A stretch of DNA of 64,000 bases, from IMG/VR virus record IMGVR_UViG_3300026035_000001, positions 1,634 through 65,633 of that record. One strand, written 5' to 3'. Shown one piece after another: positions 363 to 25,420 of this stretch. The translations under genes were made by a program, and so were the position numbers. The notes beneath the pieces are model-generated. The model was not told where the DNA came from. It saw nothing but the letters and a program-made list of their open reading frames with translations, and ran no database searches. Position 1 is the first letter of the stretch. Each line of letters opens with the position of its first letter. The stretch comes from a virus. Its lineage: Duplodnaviria; Caudoviricetes.

Positions 363-437
363 GGATCGATAGTTCAGTGCCAGAACGGCGGCCTCTTAAC
401 CCGCGCGTCCGGGGTTGGATTCCCCGTCGATCCACCA
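363..437 (+). tRNA. tRNA-Lys(CTT)
   Basis: Acceptor GGATCGA/TCGATCC, A73, CCA; loop CT CTT AA; D loop AGTGCCA, T loop TTGGATT. Confidence 0.9.
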
Positions 438-442
438 ATTTC

Positions 443-518
443 GTGCCTGTACCCCAACGGTAGAGGGATCGCGTTGAGGACGCGCTCAGTGGGTGTTCGA
501 GTCACCCCAGGCACACCA
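443..518 (+). tRNA. tRNA-Leu(GAG) with short variable loop
   Basis: Acceptor GTGCCTG/CAGGCAC, A73, CCA; loop TT GAG GA; variable region only TCAGT. Confidence 0.85.
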
Positions 519-525
519 TTTTTTT

Positions 526-624
526 GGGTCTGAAACCGTAGACGGTCTAGAAGCGGGACCGAAGATCGAAGTGCCCTTAGCGGCCGGAAGATCGCGGATG
601 TGGGATCGTCGCCCACCTGACCTA
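526..624 (+). ncRNA. tRNA-shaped RNA without a canonical anticodon loop
   Basis: Acceptor-like GGGTCTG/CTGACCT (one U.U), T arm GTGGG-ATCGTCG-CCCAC, V-arm-like GCGGCC-GGAA-GATCGC; no 7-nt anticodon loop, no encoded CCA. Confidence 0.6.
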
Positions 625-625
625 T

Positions 626-700
626 GGCCCTATAGCTCAACGGTGGAGCACCCCCCTGTCACGGGGAAGGTCCGGGGGTCAGCACCCCGTAGGGTCGCCA
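626..700 (+). tRNA. tRNA-Asp(GTC)
   Basis: Acceptor GGCCCTA/TAGGGTC, G73, CCA; loop CT GTC AC; T loop GTCAGCA. Confidence 0.9.
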
Positions 701-705
701 ATCAT

Positions 706-751
706 GGAGGCGTACCGCATAGGCGGATAACGGCGCCAGCCGGCCTCCACA
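706..751 (+). ncRNA. Y-shaped mini RNA (three-way junction)
   Basis: Stem GGAGGC/GCCTCC encloses hairpins CCGC-ATAG-GCGG and CGGC-GCCA-GCCG; 3' tail ACA. Confidence 0.5.
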
Positions 752-754
752 CTT

Positions 755-829
755 CGGAGTATGGGTCAGTGGTTGATCGCTCGGTTTGGGGCCGAGACAA
801 GGCGGGTTCGATTCCTGCTGCTCCGACCA
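755..829 (+). tRNA. tRNA-Pro(TGG)
   Basis: CGGAGTA/TGCTCCG, A73, CCA; loop TT TGG GG. Confidence 0.95.
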
Positions 830-834
830 ATTTT

Positions 835-924
835 GGGCCTTAGCACAGGTGTGCGGCTCGGTTTTATAAACCGGGGCACCGGACGGGTGTAGACGGCTCG
901 GCTCGATACCGAGGAGGCCTACCA
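835..924 (+). tRNA. irregular tRNA with UAU anticodon (nominal Ile) and long variable arm
   Basis: GGGCCTT/GAGGCCT, A73, CCA 922-924; D arm GCAC-AGGT-GTGC; loop TT TAT AA; V stem GCACC/GGTGT; T loop CTCGATA. Confidence 0.8.
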
Positions 925-1271
925 TGAAAGTCATCGCTAAGTATTTGGCGATGGAGCAGCCGCCGCTCCTGCAGCTGTGGGTACATGACGCGCCGCACCG
1001 GCGCATGCACGTGAGGGTGATCCAGGAGTACCGGCGCGCGATCTTGGCGGCGTGCCAGAAGGCTGGGATCATCACGCCGATCGCCGATCCGATCGAGCTC
1101 GATGTGCTGTTCGTCAATCCGTCGTCGCCCGATCTCGGCAATCTTTATCTGGCGCTGGAGCAAGCACTGGATGCGAAGGCACTGCGGCCGATGCCGGGCG
1201 TGGTGGTCGACGATAGCCTGATCGAGGCCGTGAAGATGGCCAAGTATTGGAATCAGGCGAAGAAAAAATAG
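924..1271 (+). CDS. RusA-like protein with degenerate active site
   Basis: PIELDVLF...PDLGNLYLALEQAL...VVVDDSLI matches the RusA pattern (DLDNxxKxxxDAL...DDxxV); SD GAGGAGG 6 nt upstream. Confidence 0.75.
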   Translation: MKVIAKYLAMEQPPLLQLWVHDAPHRRMHVRVIQEYRRAILAACQKAGIITPIADPIELDVLFVNPSSPDLGNLYLALEQALDAKALRPMPGVVVDDSLIEAVKMAKYWNQAKKK

Positions 1272-1348
1272 GATCTCTTAGCTCAACTGGATCGAGCGCC
1301 GGCCTCCGAAGCCGGGAGATCGGCGTTCGAGTCGCCGGGAGATCGCCA
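1272..1348 (+). tRNA. tRNA-Arg(CCG)
   Basis: GATCTCT/GGAGATC, G73, CCA; loop CT CCG AA; A20 present. Confidence 0.95.
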
Positions 1349-1351
1349 AAT

Positions 1352-1439
1352 GGATGGTCCAGGTGCAATGGTGCGCCAGCGGTCTTGAAAACCGTGGCCC
1401 GGGCAACCGGTGGGGGTTCGATTCCTCGGCCATCCGCCA
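1352..1439 (+). tRNA. tRNA-Ser(TGA)
   Basis: GGATGGT/GCCATCC, G73, CCA; loop CT TGA AA; long V arm. Confidence 0.92.
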
Positions 1440-1440
1440 A

Positions 1441-1589
1441 GAAGGGCTGATGCCTCACGACTGCGCCGGATTCGTAGTCATACGTTTGGGTTTGGTATCA
1501 CGATTCAAAGCCTTCCCGGAGGGCCCCGATCAATTCTGTGCAGGCCGGAGGTACGCCGCGCACGCGAGAGAGTTCAAAGCCTCGCACCA
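1441..1589 (+). ncRNA. two irregular structured RNAs, the second ending in ACCA
   Basis: 1441-1515: stems GAAGG/CCTTC, TGATGCC/GGTATCA, GACTGC/GTAGTC. 1538-1589: hairpin GCGAG/CTCGC followed by A-CCA. Both contain TTCAAAGCCT. Confidence 0.4.
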
Positions 1590-1591
1590 AT

Positions 1592-1666
1592 TGCAGGTAA
1601 AGGTCGGGTGACCCGTTCGGTCTCATAAGCCGGAACAGCAGGATTCGAGTTCCTGGCCTGCAACCA
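1592..1666 (+). tRNA. tRNA(CAT), elongator Met or Ile2 type
   Basis: TGCAGGT/GCCTGCA, A73, CCA; loop CT CAT AA; lacks the initiator GGG/CCC; 4-nt D loop. Confidence 0.85.
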
Positions 1667-1671
1667 ATTTC

Positions 1672-1762
1672 GGGTGGCGCAAGTAAGGATCGGCGGTCCG
1701 ATCGCCGCGCTGTAAACGCGGTCCCTTTGGGCAGGATGTTCAACTCAGTCCGTCACCCACCA
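1672..1762 (+). tRNA. tRNA-Tyr(GTA), irregular
   Basis: GGGTGGC/GTCACCC, A73, CCA; loop CT GTA AA; 9-nt linker, D arm GATCGG-CGGT-CCGATC; bulged T stem. Confidence 0.85.
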
Positions 1763-1763
1763 T

Positions 1764-1837
1764 GCGGCCATAGCTCAATGGCAGAGTTCGACCTTGCCAA
1801 GGTCGAGACGTCGGATCGTAACCGACTGGCCGCTCCA
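1764..1837 (+). tRNA. tRNA-Gly(GCC)
   Basis: GCGGCCA/TGGCCGC, U73, CCA; loop TT GCC AA; T loop ATCGTAA. Confidence 0.93.
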
Positions 1838-1841
1838 ATTC

Positions 1842-2096
1842 AGTCCGCGCCCGGCGGTGGATGGCCGGCGGCGGCTCGCGCGATCGATACTGCGGGAAGT
1901 ACAACCGCGAAGGGTCGACGGGAATGCGCCGCGGCGCCAATCGAAACGGGATGCCATCTGCCCTCTGGGACGGCTCCTCGCGCGATGCAATACGGTAAGG
2001 GTTTGGCGTGCCCTCCTACTTCAACGAAGACCCGCAACCGCGGCAAATTAATGAAGAGGTGACCGTGAAGGCGGTCGAATAAAACGCCATCTATTC
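1842..2096 (+). ncRNA. ~255-nt putative structured RNA between tRNA-Gly and tRNA-Phe
   Basis: No convincing ORF; hairpins CCGGC/GCCGG, GCGG/CCGC, AGGG/CCCT, GACCG/CGGTC, GAATA/TATTC; long-range GGGTC(1912)/GACCC(2029); CTCGCGCGAT occurs twice. Confidence 0.45.
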
Positions 2097-2172
2097 GCCC
2101 TGTTAGCAAATCTGGTGATTGCACGCGGCTGAAGACCGCAGGAGGCCTGTTCGAATCAGGCGCAGGGCACCA
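2097..2172 (+). tRNA. tRNA-Phe(GAA)
   Basis: GCCCTGT/GCAGGGC, A73, CCA; loop CT GAA GA. Confidence 0.93.
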
Positions 2173-2176
2173 ATTC

Positions 2177-2248
2177 GGGGAAAGCGTTGGGACGCAGTGA
2201 CCCTTTGCACGGCTCACGTTCGGAGTTCAATTCTCCGTTTCTCCACCA
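2177..2248 (+). tRNA. tRNA-Ala(TGC), compact core
   Basis: GGGGAAA/TTTCTCC with G3.U70, A73, CCA; D arm GCGT-TGGG-ACGC directly after the acceptor; loop TT TGC AC; 3-nt V loop. Confidence 0.85.
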
Positions 2249-2256
2249 TCTTCTAT

Positions 2257-2333
2257 TCCGGTCGGGCCATCTTGGTGATGGCGGGCGGCTGTTAACCGCC
2301 ATGCGGCAGGTTCGAAACCTGCGACCGGAGCCA
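2257..2333 (+). tRNA. tRNA-Asn(GTT)
   Basis: TCCGGTC/GACCGGA, G73, CCA; loop CT GTT AA. Confidence 0.93.
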
Positions 2334-2334
2334 T

Positions 2335-2409
2335 GCTGCCGTCGTCTACTGGCTAGGATGCTGGGTTCTCAACCCGGTGAAGCGGGATCGATACCCGCCG
2401 GCAGTGCCA
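2335..2409 (+). tRNA. tRNA-Glu(CTC)
   Basis: GCTGCCG/CGGCAGT, G73, CCA; loop TT CTC AA; T loop ATCGATA. Confidence 0.92.
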
Positions 2410-2414
2410 TTTAC

Positions 2415-2490
2415 GGTCCCGTAGCACAATGGATAATGCGCCAGACTACGAATCTGGGAGGTCGGGGTTCGAATCCTCGCGGGATCGCCA
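2415..2490 (+). tRNA. tRNA-Arg(ACG)
   Basis: GGTCCCG/CGGGATC, G73, CCA; loop CT ACG AA; A20 present. Confidence 0.95.
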
Positions 2491-2491
2491 T

Positions 2492-2565
2492 CAGGATGAA
2501 AGATTGCGGAAGTCGGGCGGCCTCGGATGCTGCCAGTGGAGGTTCGACTCCTCCCATCCTGACCA
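2492..2565 (+). tRNA. tRNA-Pro(CGG) with A37
   Basis: CAGGATG/CATCCTG (C1-G72), A73, CCA; loop CT CGG AT; 6-bp anticodon stem, 3-nt V loop. Confidence 0.85.
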
Positions 2566-2569
2566 ACAT

Positions 2570-2639
2570 TGCGGTCCTCCAGGGGATAAGCCCGGCTCTG
2601 ACCCGGGCGACGTGGGTTCGAGTCCTACGGCCGCAGCCA
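2570..2639 (+). tRNA. tRNA-Gln(CTG), reduced D arm (70 nt)
   Basis: TGCGGTC/GGCCGCA (U1-A72), G73, CCA; loop CT CTG AC; D region only 13 nt. Confidence 0.85.
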
Positions 2640-2646
2640 ATCCTAT

Positions 2647-2721
2647 GACCGGATGCCAGAGCGGCGATGGGCGGGCCTGCAAAGCCCGGCAAGGGGCGTT
2701 CGACTCGCCCTCCGGTCTCCA
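2647..2721 (+). tRNA. tRNA-Cys(GCA)
   Basis: GACCGGA/TCCGGTC, U73, CCA; loop CT GCA AA. Confidence 0.93.
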
Positions 2722-2723
2722 AT

Positions 2724-2800
2724 GCCCCGGTAGCTCAGTGGTAGAGCGCGCGTCTTCTAAACGCGATCTGGCGGGTGTTCGAATCACCCTCGGGGCTCCA
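2724..2800 (+). tRNA. tRNA(TCT), nominal Arg, with U73 and no A20
   Basis: GCCCCGG/TCGGGGC, U73, CCA; loop CT TCT AA; D loop AGTGGTA; 7-nt V region. Confidence 0.85.
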
Positions 2801-2804
2801 ATTT

Positions 2805-2880
2805 GGCCACGTACCGGTCGGGCCTCCTAAGCTCGATACCGTAACTGGAGATGGGCGTTCGACTCGCCCCGTGGCCACCA
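2805..2880 (+). tRNA. D-armless tRNA(CCT), nominal Arg
   Basis: GGCCACG/CGTGGCC, A73, CCA; only TACCGGT between acceptor and anticodon stems; loop CT CCT AA; 17-nt variable region; canonical T arm. Confidence 0.75.
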
Positions 2881-2881
2881 T

Positions 2882-2969
2882 GGAAGGCTAACCCGGCGGG
2901 GCCGGGCGTCGATTGCTAACCGATCGGCGGCGACTATGCCGTGAGGATCGTGCCCTCAGCCTTCCGCCA
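2882..2969 (+). tRNA. tRNA-Ser(GCT)
   Basis: GGAAGGC/GCCTTCC, G73, CCA; loop TT GCT AA; long V arm; T loop ATCGTGC. Confidence 0.9.
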
Positions 2970-2974
2970 TTCAT

Positions 2975-3049
2975 GCGACCTTGGGTCATTGGTTGATCGC
3001 CGGCCTTCCAAGCCGTGCCAAGGGAGTTCGATTCTCCCAGGTCGCTCCA
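2975..3049 (+). tRNA. tRNA-Gly(TCC)
   Basis: GCGACCT/AGGTCGC, U73, CCA; loop CT TCC AA. Confidence 0.95.
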
Positions 3050-3050
3050 T

Positions 3051-3125
3051 GCTGCGTTCGTCTACTGGCTAGGATAGCGGTCCTTCAAACCGCGGGAAGG
3101 GGATCGAAACCCCTACGCAGCCCCA
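3051..3125 (+). tRNA. tRNA-Glu(TTC) with C33 and C73
   Basis: GCTGCGT/ACGCAGC, C73, CCA; loop CC TTC AA; D arm identical to that of tRNA-Glu(CTC). Confidence 0.85.
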
Positions 3126-3130
3126 AATTT

Positions 3131-3204
3131 GGGCGGTTCGTTTAACGGTAGGACGGCAGTTTTTGAGGCTGCCTATGTGGGTTCGAATCCTACACCGCCT
3201 GCCA
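3131..3204 (+). tRNA. tRNA-Gln(TTG)
   Basis: GGGCGGT/ACCGCCT, G73, CCA; loop TT TTG AG. Confidence 0.92.
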
Positions 3205-3205
3205 A

Positions 3206-3276
3206 CGCTCTCCCTCCGGCGAGGAAACGGCTTTCATACGGCTGTCAGGCGCGATCGACACGCGCGTGAGCGACCA
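3206..3276 (+). tRNA. tRNA(CAT), compact core
   Basis: CGCTCTC/GTGAGCG, A73, CCA; D arm CCTC-CGGC-GAGG with no connector; 6-bp anticodon stem, loop TT CAT AC; V loop CAG; T loop ATCGACA. Confidence 0.75.
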
Positions 3277-3281
3277 ATCAT

Positions 3282-3358
3282 GCTGGAGATGCTCGATGGC
3301 AACGGGCGGCCGGACTGTGAATCCGGAGTACTCGGTTCGATTCCGAGCTCCAGTACCA
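3282..3358 (+). tRNA. tRNA-His(GTG), alphaproteobacterial type (no G-1)
   Basis: GCTGGAG/CTCCAGT (G1.U72), A73, T at -1, CCA; loop CT GTG AA. Confidence 0.92.
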
Positions 3359-3363
3359 AAATT

Positions 3364-3435
3364 ATCGGTGGGCTCCGGGAGCCGGCAGGTCTCCAAAACT
3401 TCGCCGCGAGGGTTCGACACCTTCCACCGGTGCCA
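3364..3435 (+). tRNA. tRNA-Trp(CCA), compact core
   Basis: ATCGGTG/CACCGGT, G73, CCA; D arm GGCTC-CGG-GAGCC with no connector; loop CT CCA AA; extended, bulged anticodon stem. Confidence 0.8.
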
Positions 3436-13515: not shown

Positions 13516-14043
13516 ATGGGGCTGATTATCGGTTTCGATCCCGGCATCAATGGGAGCGCCGCGGCTCTATGCCCGGCTGATGCCGACGGACCCGAGTTTA
13601 TCGCTGATGCCATCGATCTCCCGACCATGCCCGACGGCTCCAAGCGCCAGATCGATGACTTCGCTCTGGAAAGGTGGCTGCGCCGGCTTGGGAGGGTCTC
13701 CCATGCGGTGATCGAGAACGTGAGGGCGATGCCCTCGATTCCTGATGAGGACGGAGAGCGGCGCTCCATGGGCTCGGCAAGTGCCTTCCGGTTCGGCATG
13801 GCCGCGGGCCAGCTGCGCGCCACGGTGCGCATGGTGTTGCAGATCGAGCCGGAGTTCGTCGAGCCGGCAGTGTGGAAGCGATATTTTGCGCTCAGTTCCG
13901 ACAAAGAGGAGTCGCGTCGCTTGGCGCTGCGCCTGTTCCCGCATTCGGCCTATCTCCTGACCCGGAAAAAGGATCACCAGCGCGCCGAGGCCATGCTGGT
14001 GGCGAAGTGGCGCGCGCGGCCGCTAATTGGGAGGGGCTGGTGA
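13516..14043 (+). CDS. ruvC: RuvC-like Holliday junction resolvase
   Basis: IIGFDPG, VIENV, SAFRFG, PAVWK, DHQRAEAML. Confidence 0.85.
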   Translation: MGLIIGFDPGINGSAAALCPADADGPEFIADAIDLPTMPDGSKRQIDDFALERWLRRLGRVSHAVIENVRAMPSIPDEDGERRSMGSASAFRFGMAAGQLRATVRMVLQIEPEFVEPAVWKRYFALSSDKEESRRLALRLFPHSAYLLTRKKDHQRAEAMLVAKWRARPLIGRGW

Positions 14044-14669
14044 CGCTGCTTGAAGGGCTGCCCTATCGCCATTTCCGCGCGGTGCACGCGGATGTCCCCT
14101 GGCGTTTTGAGGCCTATTCCGAGAAGGGCGAGGAGAAAAGCGCCCAGGCCCATTATGACTGCATGTCGCTGTCCGACATTATGCGCTTACCGGTCGAGGC
14201 GCACACTGCCGACGACTGCCATCTGTTCTTTTGGGTAACCGGGCCGTTCCTGTCGACCGGGCAGCATGTGCCGATCATGCGCGCATGGGGCTTTGAGCCA
14301 ACCGCGATGGCGTTCGTATGGCTGAAGCTGAACGAGCGCTGGCACCCGCAATGGCTCTGCTACATGCAGGACGCAATGTGGTTTTTTGGACAGGGCCACA
14401 CCACCCGGCAGAACGCCGAATATGTGGTCCTCGGCCGCAAGGGCAGCCCGGAGCGGCGTTCGGCCTCGGTGCGCCAGATCATCACCGCGCCGCTGCGGGA
14501 GCATTCCCGCAAGCCGGATGAGACCTTCGCGCGGATCGAGCGCTACTGCGAGGGGCCATACCTCGACCTGTTTGGGCGCGAGCAACGGCCGGGCTGGATA
14601 GTGCGGGGGAACGAGGCCAACAAATTCAACATTTGTCAGCAGCAAAGGAAAGTCGATGGAGATTTGTGA
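14040..14669 (+). CDS. MT-A70 family adenine methyltransferase
   Basis: ADVPW (DPPW variant), HYDCM, LFFWVT, WGF, TRQNAE, HSRKP, LDLFGR; GTGA coupling. Confidence 0.9.
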   Translation: MTLLEGLPYRHFRAVHADVPWRFEAYSEKGEEKSAQAHYDCMSLSDIMRLPVEAHTADDCHLFFWVTGPFLSTGQHVPIMRAWGFEPTAMAFVWLKLNERWHPQWLCYMQDAMWFFGQGHTTRQNAEYVVLGRKGSPERRSASVRQIITAPLREHSRKPDETFARIERYCEGPYLDLFGREQRPGWIVRGNEANKFNICQQQRKVDGDL

Positions 14670-18712: not shown

Positions 18713-19489
18713 ATGCCTCTCCAGATCGACCAGGAAACCTTGGCTATCCTTTCTGAATGCACGCTCGCGCCGGCCTGCGTAGTGATGCCGCCGCGGCAAC
18801 TCGACCGCAAGCTTTACGAAAAGGTCGACAAGGTATTGCGCGCTGCTGGCGGCAAGTGGAACAAAAAGACCAGATCGCACCATTTCGAGGAGGACGCCAC
18901 CGAGATCATCGATCAAGCGATCCTGACCGGCACGATCGGCAACGCCAAGCAAGAGCTCGGCATTTTCTACACCCCGCCGGCCCTGGCCAAGCGCGCCGCG
19001 CAACACCTTAAGCTCGATCACAGCGGGATGTCGATCCTGGAGCCGAGCGCCGGCATGGGCGCTCTCGCTATCGCCGCGCGCGATGAGGCGCAGGCCGACG
19101 ATGAGCGCTGCAGCTGGGCCAATATCGCCTGTTTCGATATCGTGCAGCGTCACGTTGCGGCGCTCCAAGAACTCGGTTTTGCCGCTACATGCGCCGACTT
19201 TATGAAAGTCGAGGCAGAACCAGGATTTGACCGAATCATCATGAATCCGCCGTTCGCCAAGCAGCAGGATGCGGCACATTTCCTCCATGCATGGGGTTTC
19301 TTGAAGCCCGGCGGGAGGATCGTGGCGATCATGTCTGCCGCGGTGATGTTCCGCCAAACACCGCTCTATCAGCATGTACGGCAGATGATCGAGGGCTGCG
19401 GCGAGATAGTCCCTCTGCCGGCCGGATCATTCAAGGAATCCGGCACCGGGGTGAACGCGGTCCTCGTGATTTACGACAAGCCGCTGTAA
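18713..19489 (+). CDS. N6-adenine DNA methyltransferase
   Basis: FYTPPALA, ILEPSAGMG, DRIIMNPPF, LPAGSFKESGTGV. Confidence 0.92.
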   Translation: MPLQIDQETLAILSECTLAPACVVMPPRQLDRKLYEKVDKVLRAAGGKWNKKTRSHHFEEDATEIIDQAILTGTIGNAKQELGIFYTPPALAKRAAQHLKLDHSGMSILEPSAGMGALAIAARDEAQADDERCSWANIACFDIVQRHVAALQELGFAATCADFMKVEAEPGFDRIIMNPPFAKQQDAAHFLHAWGFLKPGGRIVAIMSAAVMFRQTPLYQHVRQMIEGCGEIVPLPAGSFKESGTGVNAVLVIYDKPL

Positions 19490-20967: not shown

Positions 20968-21233
20968 ACGGCGCGGAGCTCAAGCGGCTGCGGCTCGCCA
21001 TGCGGCTCGATGAGCTCCAGGTCGGCCGCGCCATCGGCTACACGGGCACCGATCGCAACGTCATCAACCGGATTCGCGAGTTCGAGCGGGACAAAAAACA
21101 GGTCCCGCTCTATATCGCCCGGCTGGTCTGGCTGATGGGTCGGTTTTTTGCCAAGACCGGTGGTTTGCCGAAGTTCCCGGCATGGCCCGGCTATGAGTTC
21201 GAGAGCATTCCAGATCAGCAAGGTGAAGCATGA
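20964..21233 (+). CDS. XRE-like HTH regulator
   Basis: MNGAELKRLRLAMRL...VGRAIGY...IREFE...VP. Confidence 0.75.
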   Translation: MNGAELKRLRLAMRLDELQVGRAIGYTGTDRNVINRIREFERDKKQVPLYIARLVWLMGRFFAKTGGLPKFPAWPGYEFESIPDQQGEA

Positions 21234-22258
21234 ACGCCGCAGCAATTCTGGCCATCCCGGTCGACCAGCCCGAGCGCCTGTTCAAGACGCCCACGCTGCT
21301 CCGTAGCGAGTTCGGCGGCTTGGTGATGGAATGGCACCCGGACCGCAACAAAGCGCCGGAAGCCGCAGCAGTGGTCGACCATATCCAGGCACTCTATCGC
21401 GCGGCGCAGCAGCGGATCAAGGCTGGCCTATGGTCGCCAGCGAATGAGATGCACGTCACCGCGGTGACTGGCAAGAAATACCGGATCAGGTTCCGGAAAC
21501 GTCATGCTTTCGAGCTCGGCGAAATGCTGGTCGGGATGCATTTTGTCACATTCGTGATCGACAAAAAGCACGAAAACCTGATGCTGCGCGGGGTGAAGCG
21601 AATCGGATCGCTGAAATATCCAACCGAGCAATTCCGTCGCAGCATCGGCCCGTTGATGCCGGCGATCGGCCGCAATATCGAGACGGCAGAAAAGTGGATC
21701 ATCTCGACCCGCAAGCAACCCGATGAGGTTTTGCTCTCCGATTTGATCGCTTACCTCGGCGGGAAGATCGAGGCCAAGCATACCGCATGGGTCATCTCCA
21801 GGCTGCTCAATCTGGCCTGTTTCCTGACCGTGGCCAATATCTCCCACAACGGCATCAGCCCGACCACGGTATTCGTCTCTCCTCAGAAGCACGCTGCAGC
21901 CTTATACGGAGGCTGGTGGTACGCTGTCGACCCGGGCAAGCTAATTACCCATCTGCCGCCGGCAACGTATCAGCTGGCCTCGCGGCGGCTCCTGGCGCAC
22001 AAAATAGCCACCCACGAACTCGACCTTGAGAGCATCAAGGCGGTTGGCCGCGCCTGTCTCGGCGATCTGTCCGGTGGATCGCTGCGCGGTAGCGCCGATA
22101 TCCCTGCCCCCATAGCTCAGTGGCTCCAGATGCCGCCGGCCAAGACCGCCTTTGCCGAATATGAGAGATGGCCGAAGATTCTCTCCGACAGCTTTGGACC
22201 CCGCCGATTCCATCAGCTGCCTATCACCGGCGAAGACGTTTACCCAGAAGGAACGTAA
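21230..22258 (+). CDS. J-domain-like / protein-kinase-like (pseudokinase) fusion
   Basis: N-terminal EWHPDRN (J-domain HPD); kinase-like lobe WVISRLLNLACFL...HNGISPTT...LYGGWWY...DL lacking the HRD and DFG Asp residues. Confidence 0.7.
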   Translation: MNAAAILAIPVDQPERLFKTPTLLRSEFGGLVMEWHPDRNKAPEAAAVVDHIQALYRAAQQRIKAGLWSPANEMHVTAVTGKKYRIRFRKRHAFELGEMLVGMHFVTFVIDKKHENLMLRGVKRIGSLKYPTEQFRRSIGPLMPAIGRNIETAEKWIISTRKQPDEVLLSDLIAYLGGKIEAKHTAWVISRLLNLACFLTVANISHNGISPTTVFVSPQKHAAALYGGWWYAVDPGKLITHLPPATYQLASRRLLAHKIATHELDLESIKAVGRACLGDLSGGSLRGSADIPAPIAQWLQMPPAKTAFAEYERWPKILSDSFGPRRFHQLPITGEDVYPEGT

Positions 22259-22259
22259 A

Positions 22260-23174
22260 ATGGGAAACACCACATTCGACCCTGGCGCCTATGCGGCATA
22301 CGCCCGCTCGACGTCGCACCTGGATCATACGACGAAATTCAGGGCGAGCTCGGCCAAAGCCGCGTTCACAGCGAAAGAGATCAAGGTCCGCGAATCTGTC
22401 AAATCGGACATCAACCCGCACCCGACACCGATCATCGTGGGCCTCGACGTCACCGGCAGCATGGGCCCGGTGGTCGACGCCTGCCACAAGGCGCTCGGTA
22501 CGCTGTTCGAGGAGATCATCAAGCGCGGGCCGGTCTCCGATCCGCACGTGCTCGCGATGGCGATCGGCGACATGGACTATGATCGGTCGCCGGTGCAGGC
22601 CACCCAATTCGAGGGCGATCCCGTGACCATCGGTAAGCAGGTCGAGGAGCTCCACCTGGAGCGCGGCGGCGGCGGCAACGACCATGAAAGCTATCTCGGG
22701 CCGCTCTATTTCGCCCTCAATCGGACGAAATGCGATGCCTTCGCCGAAGGCCGGAAGGGCTATATCTTCACCGTCGGCGACGAAGGGCCCCAAGAGAGGA
22801 TAGAGTCCTCCCAGATCGAGCGCTGGTTCGGCGATCAGGTCACCAGCTACATCTCGGCCGAACGTCTCATCGATTCGGTGCAGCGCAATTGGCATGTGTT
22901 CCACATCATCATCAAGCAAGGCACATTCCAGGGCTATCCGGCGGCGCCGCGGGCCAACGCGCGTTGGCGGGAATTGCTCGGCCAGCATGTGATCGAGCTC
23001 AATGACCACACCAAGATGGTAGAGACCATCATTTCGGTGATCGAGGTGACCGAGGGCCGCGACAAGGATGCGGTCGCGCATTCCTGGAGCGGGGACACCA
23101 GCCTCGTTGTGCGGGATGCGATCAAGGGACTGACGCCGGCCGAGAAGGCTGGTAGCGGCCCCGTCGCGCTCTGA
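22260..23174 (+). CDS. von Willebrand factor A domain protein
   Basis: MIDAS IIVGLDVTGSMG, AIGD, GGGGNDHESY, FTVGDE. Confidence 0.88.
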   Translation: MGNTTFDPGAYAAYARSTSHLDHTTKFRASSAKAAFTAKEIKVRESVKSDINPHPTPIIVGLDVTGSMGPVVDACHKALGTLFEEIIKRGPVSDPHVLAMAIGDMDYDRSPVQATQFEGDPVTIGKQVEELHLERGGGGNDHESYLGPLYFALNRTKCDAFAEGRKGYIFTVGDEGPQERIESSQIERWFGDQVTSYISAERLIDSVQRNWHVFHIIIKQGTFQGYPAAPRANARWRELLGQHVIELNDHTKMVETIISVIEVTEGRDKDAVAHSWSGDTSLVVRDAIKGLTPAEKAGSGPVAL

Positions 23175-23245
23175 TGGAATACGTGTTTGTCAGCCTTGGG
23201 GTGCTGCTGATTTGGGCGCTCCTAGGGGCAATCTTCGCGCCATAG
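23174..23245 (+). CDS. 23-aa single-TM peptide
   Basis: MEYVFVSLGVLLIWALLGAIFAP; TGATG overlap with the vWA stop; ends at the PurA-like SD. Confidence 0.55.
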   Translation: MEYVFVSLGVLLIWALLGAIFAP

Positions 23246-23258
23246 AAGGAAGCGACCA

Positions 23259-24362
23259 ATGAAGCGCGCCACCGCGGTAATCGGAGCAGTGTTCGGAGAC
23301 GAAGGTAAGGGCCTTTTCACGGACTATTTTTGTCGGCTAGCTGGCTCCGAACCGCTGGTGGTGCGCTTCAATGGTGGGGCCCAAGCAGGACATACCGTCG
23401 TCACTCCGACCGGAATCAGGCATGTGTTCCACCATTTCGGATCGGGAACGCTTGCCGGCGCGCGCACCTATTTGTCGCGGTTCTTCCTGGTCAACCCGAT
23501 CCTGTGGATGAAGGAACATCAGGAGCTCCAGGCTCTGAGCCAGCAGCACAATCTCGGCCTTCGGCTGCGCCTGTTCGTCGATCGCGAGGCACCGCTGACC
23601 ACCGTTATCGACATGATCGAAGGGCAGGACCGCGAGCGCCAGAAGCGCCATGGCAGCTGCGGCGCCGGCATCCATGCGACAATGGTGCGCCAAAAATACG
23701 CCCAGTACCGCCTATTTGCTGGCGACCTGGATAATCCAATGTTTCTCAGCGACCGGGTTTACAAAATACGCAAACAGGTCGATTCGACGATCAGCGATGA
23801 GGTGATCGAGCGATTTCTCGAAGACTGCCGGCTGATGCGCTCGCATATCAGTTTTTGCGATAGTCGCCTGATGGCAGCGCACCCGGGCGATATCGTGTTC
23901 GAGGGAGCCCAGGGCCTACTTCTGGATCAGGACAACATGACGTTTTTCCCGCATGTGACCCACAGCCACACGGGCTTGCGCAACGTCTCGGAGCTCTCCC
24001 GCGAATGCAATATCGATCGAATGAACGTGGTCTATGTGCTACGCTCCTACATCACCCGGCATGGCGCCGGGCTGCTTCCATCGGAAGCGTCTGAACTGTC
24101 TTATCCAGATGACACAAATGTCGAAAACGAATGGCAGGGGAAATTACGATTTGCCCCGCTCGACGCGCGGAACAGAGAAATGGTTGGCAATGCGATCATC
24201 CGCGACTTTTCGGGAAACGAGCGCGCTGGCATGAAATTGTCAGTCGCAATGACGCATTTAGACCAATGCGAGATACCCAATTTTGAAAAATTACGAACGA
24301 CATTCCGCTCTCACGGGCCCTCCGCCGGCAATATCGAGGGAAAAGCGGAATGGCCGCATTAA
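23259..24362 (+). CDS. adenylosuccinate synthetase (PurA)-like enzyme, divergent
   Basis: FGDEGKG, RFNGGAQAGHT, GSG, GSCGAGI, FEGAQGLLLD, FPHVTHS, YITRHGAG; aspartate-binding TTGR loop replaced. Confidence 0.9.
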   Translation: MKRATAVIGAVFGDEGKGLFTDYFCRLAGSEPLVVRFNGGAQAGHTVVTPTGIRHVFHHFGSGTLAGARTYLSRFFLVNPILWMKEHQELQALSQQHNLGLRLRLFVDREAPLTTVIDMIEGQDRERQKRHGSCGAGIHATMVRQKYAQYRLFAGDLDNPMFLSDRVYKIRKQVDSTISDEVIERFLEDCRLMRSHISFCDSRLMAAHPGDIVFEGAQGLLLDQDNMTFFPHVTHSHTGLRNVSELSRECNIDRMNVVYVLRSYITRHGAGLLPSEASELSYPDDTNVENEWQGKLRFAPLDARNREMVGNAIIRDFSGNERAGMKLSVAMTHLDQCEIPNFEKLRTTFRSHGPSAGNIEGKAEWPH

Positions 24363-24384: not shown

Positions 24385-24558
24385 ATGAGCGACCATAAAG
24401 GCGACAAATCAAAGCAGCCGCAAGGCTGTCAGCCGGAAAAGTACGCGGGCAACCCCTGCCCAAACATGAAGGAGACCGGAGGCGGGATGGATGGCGAGCA
24501 ATATCGCTGTGAAGTCTGCGGCGAGGCTTTCTATCTCGACTACGACGAGATGCGTTAG
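24385..24558 (+). CDS. 57-aa zinc-ribbon protein
   Basis: MSDHK...PCPNM...YRCEVCGEAFYLDYDEMR; GAGGG SD. Confidence 0.6.
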   Translation: MSDHKGDKSKQPQGCQPEKYAGNPCPNMKETGGGMDGEQYRCEVCGEAFYLDYDEMR

Positions 24559-24577
24559 ACGCCACTTAAGGAAACCG

Positions 24578-25420
24578 ATGAACCCCTACCTGATCCAGGG
24601 CCCGGCCTTGATCTCGTTCAGCGGTGGCCGCACCTCGGCCTATATGCTGCACGAAATCCTGCGCGCTCACGACGGCAAATTGCCGGAAGATGTGCGGGTC
24701 TGCTTTGCCAACACTGGGAAAGAGCGGGAGGAGACGCTTCGCTTTGTCCATGAGTGTTCGGTGCGCTGGGATGTTCACGTCAACTGGATCGAATATCGCG
24801 ACAATACCGTAGGCTTCGAACTGGTCGGCTATAATTCGGCAAGCCGGAACGGAGAGCCGTTCCAGGCGATGATCGACAAAAAGAAGCGCCTACCGAACTG
24901 GAAAGAGCGGTGGTGTACTGATCGGCTCAAGGTGCAGCCTATGACGGATTTTGCTGCCTCGCTAGGTCTCTTGCCCGGCGCCTATACCGAAGTGATCGGG
25001 CTGCGCCATGACGAAGGCATGCGAATCCTCAAGGGCATGGAGAACGCAGAGAAGCGCGGCAGGAAGTGTGCGTGGCCGCTGGCGAAGGCCAAGGCGACCA
25101 AGAACGGCCACGTCATGCCGTTCTGGCGCGAACAACCATTCGATCTTGGCCTTGAGCCATGGGAAGGCAACTGCGATGTGTGCTTTTTGAAAGGACGCGG
25201 TATCAAAAAGCGCATCATCGCCGATGATCCTAGTCGGGCGATTTGGTGGTCCAACAACGAGAGCAAGCACAAGGGTAAGCAAGAACGGGGATGGTTCGAC
25301 CGGCGCGACAGTATCGCCGGCTTAGTTGCCGAGGTGCGCAAAGCACCAACCCTTTTCGAGCCGATAGATGATGCGGACTATGACGTGGAATGCGGGCTGA
25401 CATGCTCAGCCGATCTTTAA
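24578..25420 (+). CDS. PAPS-reductase/PP-loop family protein
   Basis: ISFSGGRTSAYM, FANTGKE, RWCTDRLK, IGLRHDE, GNCDVCFLK. Confidence 0.88.
   Translation: MNPYLIQGPALISFSGGRTSAYMLHEILRAHDGKLPEDVRVCFANTGKEREETLRFVHECSVRWDVHVNWIEYRDNTVGFELVGYNSASRNGEPFQAMIDKKKRLPNWKERWCTDRLKVQPMTDFAASLGLLPGAYTEVIGLRHDEGMRILKGMENAEKRGRKCAWPLAKAKATKNGHVMPFWREQPFDLGLEPWEGNCDVCFLKGRGIKKRIIADDPSRAIWWSNNESKHKGKQERGWFDRRDSIAGLVAEVRKAPTLFEPIDDADYDVECGLTCSADL

Follow-up and report, generated by a model that had tools for sequence, protein, structure and literature searches.

The stretch of DNA considered here is a 64,000-nt window that makes up nearly the entire complete 65.6 kb record of a virus of the Caudoviricetes with direct terminal repeats (IMG/VR record IMGVR_UViG_3300026035_000001). 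Its positions 21230-24362 encode, on the plus strand, a J-domain pseudokinase (P0001), a protein with a von Willebrand factor A (vWA) fold and an enzyme related to adenylosuccinate synthetase, PurA (P0004). These genes are best understood, with a probability of about 0.6, as one copy of a widespread three-protein module (the trio) in which a GTP-dependent ligase would act with a vWA protein and a J-pseudokinase under nicotinamide adenine dinucleotide (NAD) or nucleotide stress. By sequence, the enzyme falls outside both PurA and PurZ/PurZ0, in a third clade of the adenylosuccinate-synthetase superfamily. A preliminary description of this DNA had quoted a series of motifs (HPD, HNGISP, YGGWW, GDEGKG, GHT, EGAQG, a His in YxTRxG and DTNVENEWQGKLR), all of which are found where it placed them. 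It had also held that housekeeping PurA and PurZ are both wrong assignments for the enzyme, a claim now borne out by a residue table, NCBIfam cut-offs, a phylogenetic tree, missing partners of Z-DNA synthesis and co-resident canonical PurA, and that the genes form a dedicated system with vWA and J-domain partners, as confirmed by recurrent gene order and by natural fusions. The literature searched contains no description of a combination of J-pseudokinase, vWA and PurA-like proteins. The analysis also brings out the Met-Gly rule of the vWA family, the co-variation of its C-terminal tail with the partner protein, the fusions, the position of the inteins and the three-clade tree.

Evidence for a module comes from the linkage of its genes, the subject of the neighbourhood survey proposed in the preliminary description. 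Two sets of viral loci were assembled, 80 found via the PurA-like enzyme and 43 found via the J protein; for bacteria, one genome per species was searched, with at least 528 hits, and the counts refer to the best 80. The vWA gene lies directly upstream of the PurA-like gene in 79/80 loci of the first viral set, and the order J-pseudokinase, vWA, PurA-like recurs in 39/43 loci of the second (GC content 0.31-0.56). The bacterial loci comprise 50/80 with the full trio and 75/80 with vWA followed by the PurA-like gene, so that the genes co-occur far beyond chance. The trio enzyme is encoded in the genomes of at least 528 bacterial species. In bacteria of many phyla the trio forms a free-standing chromosomal operon and is thus not phage-specific. 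About 220 cultured phages carry the module, the vWA and PurA-like pair being found in ~200 Mycobacterium cluster C phages, 10 Rhizobium phages and 6 large Vibrio phages; carriers include Bxz1-type mycobacteriophages as well as Clostridium, Massilia and Rhizobium strains. In addition, the vWA and PurA-like proteins are naturally fused in P0120, P0132 and P0133, with the vWA part first in all of them. Two other fusions, of the PurA-like protein with Nudix (P0136) and with peptidase S51 (P0134; cyanophycinase/Asp-specific dipeptidase E family), are possible clues to the substrate.

Some loci depart from this arrangement. Locus L125 has J-pseudokinase and vWA genes and no PurA-like gene inside the flank, and in L113 a shortened J protein is followed directly by a PurA-like fragment, without a vWA gene. 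Insertions of 1-2 kb occur within the module of L095, L101, L114 and L099. In L046 (4915-5988) and similar gut-phage loci, a gene for a 357-residue treble-clef zinc finger protein (DUF4379), likely a homing endonuclease, stands between vWA and PurA-like genes.

Four tightly coupled genes had been described originally. Three of them are real and translationally coupled, while the fourth, a hydrophobic open reading frame (ORF) of 23 codons, is not conserved. The P0001 ATG overlaps the stop of the upstream ORF (ATGA), the vWA ATG lies one base past the P0001 TAA stop, and P0004 is preceded by a ribosome-binding site of its own, AAGGAAG. The vWA start is taken as the ATG at 22260 rather than the TTG at 22152, because all relatives begin with MG. 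The 23-codon ORF (23174-23245, plus strand) does overlap the vWA stop (TGATG), as had been noted, and ends 13 nt before the ATG of the PurA-like gene. It has no tblastn match in 80 loci; the spacer between vWA and PurA-like genes has a median length of 20 nt across 195 loci, and a short hydrophobic ORF is found in this spacer elsewhere in L091 only. It is therefore probably not a conserved gene of the module, and a transmembrane peptide as fourth member was rejected on these sequence comparisons. Cluster C phages carry a 90-residue gene between vWA and PurA-like genes (Bxz1 gp249; L082:4723-4995), which is unrelated to the 23-codon ORF.

P0004 (23259-24362, plus strand; 367 residues) belongs to the same superfamily as PurA (EC 6.3.4.4; PF00709, TIGR00184; E. 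coli structures 1ADE/1CG0), and its catalytic residues are kept. The match to PF00709 (4.7e-36) covers only profile positions 1-278 of 416, and that to E. coli PurA (2e-19) only residues 5-277. The P-loop GDEGKG (23295-23312) contains the equivalents of the catalytic Asp13 and Lys16, and the switch loop GGAQAGHT (23373-23396) that of His41, with Gln in place of N38 and Asn in place of Q34; FEGAQG and an SxGP motif are also retained. A residue table comparing 22 clade members with E. coli PurA and phiVC8 PurZ indicates that D13, K16, H41, Q224 and T239 are kept in the clade, that Q34 is replaced by Asn, N38 by Gln, T128 by Ser, T129 by Cys and V273 by an invariant His, and that R131, R143, T300, T301, R303 and R305 are missing, position 143 being variable or absent. 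The His at Val273 lies in the TRHG motif (24054-24065, within YITRHGAG) and is invariant in 17 and in 22 clade members. A DTNVENEWQGKLR loop (24111-24149) occupies the place of the aspartate-binding GxTTGRxR, with loss of T300, T301, R303 and R305. In the clade this region reads [WFY]-Q-G-x-[LFIM], no Arg occurs there in any of the 22 members, and P0004 has no TTGR-like motif anywhere. All clade members have N287, Q293 and R297; K331 is replaced, and this phage retains the guanine-specifying D333.

It follows from this comparison of residues that P0004 lacks every residue known to hold L-aspartate, and that its pocket for the 5′-phosphate of inosine monophosphate (IMP), whose contacts N38, T129 and R143′ are not kept in the clade, is remodelled. 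The active site nevertheless appears to be in use. Inteins (PF14890/PF14528) in the homologues P0121 and P0123-P0131, from several phage and bacterial lineages, sit exactly at GGAQAGH|T, and this position, between the catalytic His and the next Thr, speaks for an active site that is both constrained and functional. In a maximum-likelihood tree, vWA-linked enzymes (25 rows), canonical PurA (6) and PurZ/PurZ0 (5) separate at 98-100% support; the vWA-linked clade itself has a support of 100/99, with phage and bacterial members interleaved.

These data bear directly on the simplest alternative, namely that P0004 is an ordinary auxiliary purine gene, an adenylosuccinate synthetase that has diverged but still raises AMP synthesis for phage replication, with unrelated passengers as neighbours. 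The PF00709 match, the retention of the catalytic D13, H41 and Q224, and the label ‘PurA-like adenylosuccinate synthetase’ given by depositors to relatives are all in its favour. However, no member of the clade retains T300, T301, R303, R305 or R131, and scores against the curated PurA models are far below their cut-offs (100.5 bits versus 402 and 86.7 versus 395.6 for NF002223 and TIGR00184). P0004 further differs from PurA by a shorter and divergent C-terminal third, by its separate clade and by its pairing with a vWA protein. Moreover, 5/5 trio-bearing bacteria examined also encode a full-length canonical PurA (590-636 bits, versus 127-178 bits for the trio copy), PurB was not found in this phage genome, and simple salvage would leave the vWA linkage and the fusions unexplained. 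This explanation is thus very unlikely, and a plain PurA was rejected as the main account on the basis of the residue losses, the cut-offs, the co-resident PurA and the tree.

PurZ and PurZ0 (NF038379; 6FM1, 7ODX, 7VF6) resemble the trio enzyme in being phage-borne PurA homologues with changed substrate specificity, and a role in making 2-aminoadenine (Z) DNA is suggested by PHROGs, which places P0004 together with PurZ in phrog_1211 (‘2-aminooxy adenylosuccinate synthetase’), and by the PurZ-type label of certain RefSeq relatives. Against this, P0004 keeps Asp13, where all 147 phage PurZ/PurZ0 carry Ser (PMC12884076), as do the five PurZ/PurZ0 sequences compared here. PurZ retains the aspartate-contacting loop (PMC8342488) that the trio enzyme lacks. 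The score against NF038379 is 53 bits for a cut-off of 300, and PurZ falls in a separate clade (100/99). PurZ is accompanied by DatZ, MazZ and DpoZ, whereas none of DatZ (PF12917), MazG (PF03819) or PolA, the family-A DNA polymerase (PF00476), was found in the complete 65.6 kb genome. Cultured phages bearing PurZ and those bearing the trio are also non-overlapping sets. The Z-genome reading is accordingly extremely improbable and was rejected on the grounds of Asp13, NF038379, the tree and the missing partners. In a survey of PurA homologues from phages that appeared in 2026, trio-type sequences figure only as an outgroup of ‘other PurA homologs’ (PMC12884076). Given the loss of the aspartate pocket and the constant association with a vWA protein, the product is very probably something other than adenylosuccinate and would be either a new nucleotide or a nucleotide–protein link.

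The vWA protein (22260-23174, plus strand; 304 residues) had been assigned its fold in the preliminary description, and the assignment is sustained by structure prediction and structural comparison, with the DVTGSM and TVGDE motifs present. By sequence it has no Pfam, NCBIfam or PDB match, including Pfam searches with 20 members and a profile search against the PDB, and it corresponds to phrog_2971, to which no function is assigned. Its AlphaFold2 (AF2) model (mean predicted local distance difference test, pLDDT, 85.9; predicted template modelling score, pTM, 0.87) retrieves factor B, integrin I-domains, Rpn10 and TFIIH p44 in Foldseek (E ~5e-6), and residues 52-297 give Z scores of 12-14.6 in VIA-align, with NorD and BchD among the matches. 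Both comparisons thus identify a Rossmann-like vWA fold. The putative metal-ion-dependent adhesion site (MIDAS) comprises D63-V-T65-G-S67 (DVTGSM; 22446-22460) and its partner D174 (TVGDE; 22779-22781). Over 27 homologues, D63, G66, S67, M68 and D174 never vary and T65 is retained in at least 90%; GGGGN140 stands where many vWA domains carry GGT. The family is large: a library of 1.84 billion representatives contains 913 of its clusters at E <= 1e-30.

Both ends of the vWA protein are distinctive. The N-terminal tail, flexible in the model (pLDDT 55-66), starts with Met-Gly in 189/196 ORFs from the surveyed loci and in 138/150 independent representatives (~95%), followed by an aromatic residue in the consensus MGxGRWDxxDW. 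The C-terminal tail is hydrophobic (…GPVAL in this phage); it conforms to G-h-x-[RK]-[FL] in the presence of J-pseudokinase partners and lacks this motif when the partner is the ‘U’ protein described below, in which case it ends in …EEITW or …ALFGKQ. This co-variation with partner type suggests that the vWA tail docks on the pseudokinase.

The conserved N-terminus raises another possibility, that of a protein–nucleotide ligase in which the α-amine of the vWA N-terminal Gly, exposed by removal of Met, would attack C6 of a purine nucleotide phosphorylated at O6 with GTP, the J-pseudokinase and DnaK assembling or remodelling the adduct. The near-invariance of Met-Gly, the flexibility of the N-tail, the disappearance of residues that bind the Asp side chain and the fusions, all of which keep the vWA part and hence a free N-terminus first, are consistent with such a reaction. 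The S51 fusion, which involves a peptidase family specific for N-terminal Asp, also points to peptide N-termini, and hadacidin, a glycine derivative, occupies the Asp site of PurA. This proposal is purely inferential; the order within fusions only mirrors the order of genes, and the conserved Gly2 could instead serve docking, Met removal or stability. On balance it is unlikely. If true, it would imply a covalent N6-linked nucleotide–protein adduct, switched on in bacteria by ADP-ribose, and we know of no protein ‘purinylation’ of this kind in biology.

P0001 (21230-22258, plus strand; 342 residues) combines a J-domain (residues ~1-65) with a kinase fold (~70-337). The claim that this fold lacks its catalytic Asp residues and carries an HPD J-motif is borne out by the AF2 model, a fold search and profile alignment. 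The model (pLDDT 93.9, pTM 0.82) has helices at residues 21-35 and 45-64, and the HPD tripeptide H36-P37-D38 (21335-21343, within WHPD) is located between them. Foldseek places the human DnaJ-PKA fusion (4wb7/8fe5) first, the DnaJ part of 4wb7 included, followed by kinases, with at least 500 kinase matches, and VIA-align superposes residues 70-337 on Hanks kinases with Z scores of 17-19 and a root-mean-square deviation of ~3.2 Å over 220-256 residues; the bilobal Hanks fold is recovered by both methods. P0001 has >100 homologues (25-65% identity), and for many of them a match to PF00226 (DnaJ) is on record. Across 33 diverse homologues, H36 and P37 never vary and D38 is kept in at least 90%, so that model and family agree on a helical J-domain with HPD between helices II and III.

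Alignment of the P0001 family profile with a canonical kinase (hhalign) pairs YRD with HNG, KPSN with SPTT and DFG with YGG. At the place of the HRD motif, H206-N207-G208 (21845-21853, within SHNGISP) has Gly for the catalytic Asp, and at that of DFG, Y226-G227-G228-W229-W230 (21905-21919) has Tyr for Asp. The replacement of the HRD Asp, of the catalytic-loop Asn and of the DFG Asp indicates that the fold is catalytically dead. No conserved Asp occurs at the kinase catalytic positions across the 33 homologues, in which the HNG position itself is variable and GGW invariant; K162 and E95 are conserved. The Bxz1 protein gp247, annotated as ‘serine/threonine kinase’, has the same layout of J-domain and kinase fold and aligns to P0001.

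As for known systems, phage-encoded class C J-domain co-chaperones exist, for example Rki of phage RB43. P0001 shares with class C proteins an N-terminal J-domain with HPD fused to a private client-binding domain, but this domain is here a pseudokinase fold. The resemblance to the oncogenic human DnaJB1-PKA fusion is one of shape only. NorQ-NorD, BchI-BchD and MoxR-vWA are comparable in that a vWA subunit with a MIDAS motif acts with a partner driven by nucleoside triphosphate; in the trio, this partner would be of the PurA type (possibly together with Hsp70) and not an AAA+ ring, and a metal-cofactor target is not evident.

Stress and conflict systems such as the TerY-P triad repeatedly pair a kinase with a vWA protein, and the trio could likewise be a conflict module (defence or superinfection exclusion) borrowed by phages, with the trio as sensor and effector and the PurA-like enzyme depleting nucleotides or making a signal. 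The TerY-P triad (vWA TerY, Ser/Thr kinase and PP2C), whose type of kinase and vWA pairing is mentioned in PMC11090510, and Deinococcus DRA0331-0334 (bioRxiv 10.64898/2026.01.23.701218) share with the trio an operon pairing of a kinase fold with a vWA protein that has a MIDAS-type motif. In the trio, however, the kinase is usually dead and bears a J-domain, the vWA protein has no TerY match and the third gene is PurA-like; as to a phosphatase or FHA partner, the 133 loci clustered by neighbours reveal no fourth conserved gene other than NrtR (see below), although no search aimed at PP2C was made. The free-standing operon in variable chromosomal contexts of many phyla and the interleaving of phage and bacterial sequences in the tree would also suit a conflict module. 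On the other side, PADLOC-DB 2.0 yields 0 families for P0001, the vWA protein and P0004 at E <= 0.01, the genes belong to the core set of ~200 lytic cluster C mycobacteriophages, and control by NrtR suggests metabolic homeostasis over infection sensing, so that this reading is distinctly unlikely. For similar reasons (a free-standing bacterial operon, often beside NrtR, and no PADLOC match) the counter-defence role proposed in the preliminary description is conjectural.

NrtR provides an indication of a physiological context. The only further recurrent neighbour over the 133 loci is a regulator of the NrtR family (NrtR winged helix-turn-helix, 67-72 bits, plus Nudix), which lies upstream of the trio in divergent orientation in 23/80 bacterial loci, in Proteobacteria and Firmicutes. 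The NrtR–trio intergenic regions examined (including L134, L141, L146, L175 and L196, and L181, L186 and L209) hold lineage-specific palindromes of 21-22 bp that are candidate NrtR operators. In Competibacteraceae these are TTATTTG-N7-CAAATAA and TGTTATTA-N2-AAATAACA, and alphaproteobacterial loci have tandem TTTGCAA-N8-TTGCAAA sites. They share the architecture of published NrtR operators, with a TG-N7-CA core rather than GT-N7-AC. ADP-ribose releases NrtR repressors from DNA, and published NrtR regulons contain genes of NAD synthesis and salvage and no purA-like gene (PMC2330246). NMNAT/Nudix and phosphoribosyltransferase (PRTase) genes also adjoin the module in one Rhizobium phage and in L010, and the PurA-like–Nudix fusion P0136 is a further pointer to NAD. 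Presumed control of the NrtR type in bacteria makes it most likely that the module participates in a response to NAD+ breakdown or to stress on the nucleotide pool.

The mechanism favoured here can be outlined as follows. The enzyme would use GTP to phosphorylate the lactam oxygen of a purine-type substrate, and the phosphate would then be displaced by an amine other than free aspartate. It would act in complex with the vWA protein, whose Met-Gly tail and MIDAS site may present or hold the substrate, and the pseudokinase would dock on the vWA C-tail and use its HPD motif to bring in the host Hsp70 (DnaK). An NrtR-type, ADP-ribose-sensing repressor would govern induction of the operon in bacteria; the phage, which lacks this regulator, would express the module together with its early or middle genes, to take over the host or to counter its defences.

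Several observations weigh against this account. Its steps, whether they concern substrate, product or interactions, are all inferred. The Pfam DnaJ score of P0001, 16.2 bits, is under the cut-off of 27.8. The alignment of the C-terminal third of P0004, which contains the Asp loop and the guanine motif, is less sure than that of the N-terminal 280 residues, and certain subclades have Asn at the guanine-specifying Asp, implying that the nucleotide donor may differ between members. The third partner varies, being a J-pseudokinase, an apparently active kinase, a ‘U’ protein or none, so that recruitment of DnaK cannot be essential to the chemistry. The Melainabacteria partner is a canonical kinase (127.5-bit Pkinase match). 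The ‘U’ proteins of gut, Vibrio and Rhizobium phages (L003:4495-5103, L010:4366-5097, L002:4278-5066, L084:4246-4965 and L083:3753-4544) consist of a beta-rich N-domain and a Met/Gly-rich low-complexity tail ending in FFDN or in an acidic run; they have no Pfam or NCBIfam match and are not kinase-like. Finally, the adjacent NrtR and palindromes of the 23 bacterial loci, which liken them to NrtR regulons, have no counterpart in this phage: the NrtR gene is absent, NrtR-like operators are not above chance near the trio in the window and no NAD genes are present among the genes scanned. The NAD link is consequently borrowed from other genomes.

The remainder of the genome (GC ~61%) encodes terminase, portal, major head and tail proteins, DnaB, a replication initiator, an Erf recombinase and an exonuclease subunit; no DNA polymerase of the phage itself was identified, family A included, and it presumably relies on the host replicase. 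The trio sits in a long co-directional block, with replication and methyltransferase genes on one side and a PAPS-reductase/SspD-like gene on the other, and no sigma-70-like promoters above chance were detected in the 16-27 kb part of the window. The last gene (24491-25420; phrog_424), directly after the trio, encodes a PAPS-reductase fold with weak SspD/DndC matches and may be involved in DNA modification; it was rejected as a member of the module, its homologue being found in no other locus. Upstream of the trio, the replication block includes two DNA methyltransferase genes, of the MT-A70 and N6 types (13872-14669 and 18713-19489). At one end of the genome, 24 tRNA genes are clustered within 3 kb (window 363-3435), and one of them, called as tRNA-Ile(tat) at 835-924, has an unusual length of 90 nt. 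No near-identical phage records were found, and scanning metagenomes with P0001 yielded short J-domain matches only, without close relatives.

The chemistry of PurA has hitherto been thought to have two natural outputs, adenylosuccinate, made by PurA, and its 2-amino-deoxy analogue, made by PurZ, which rewrites phage DNA. The trio clade would represent a third and large branch of this chemistry, with a vWA partner family of ~900 clusters at 50% identity. The presence of NrtR in bacteria and of NAD-salvage neighbours in some phages ties the module to the arms race around NAD+ depletion, currently a very active field. All three proteins are small and have confident folds, and the module is therefore open to direct test.

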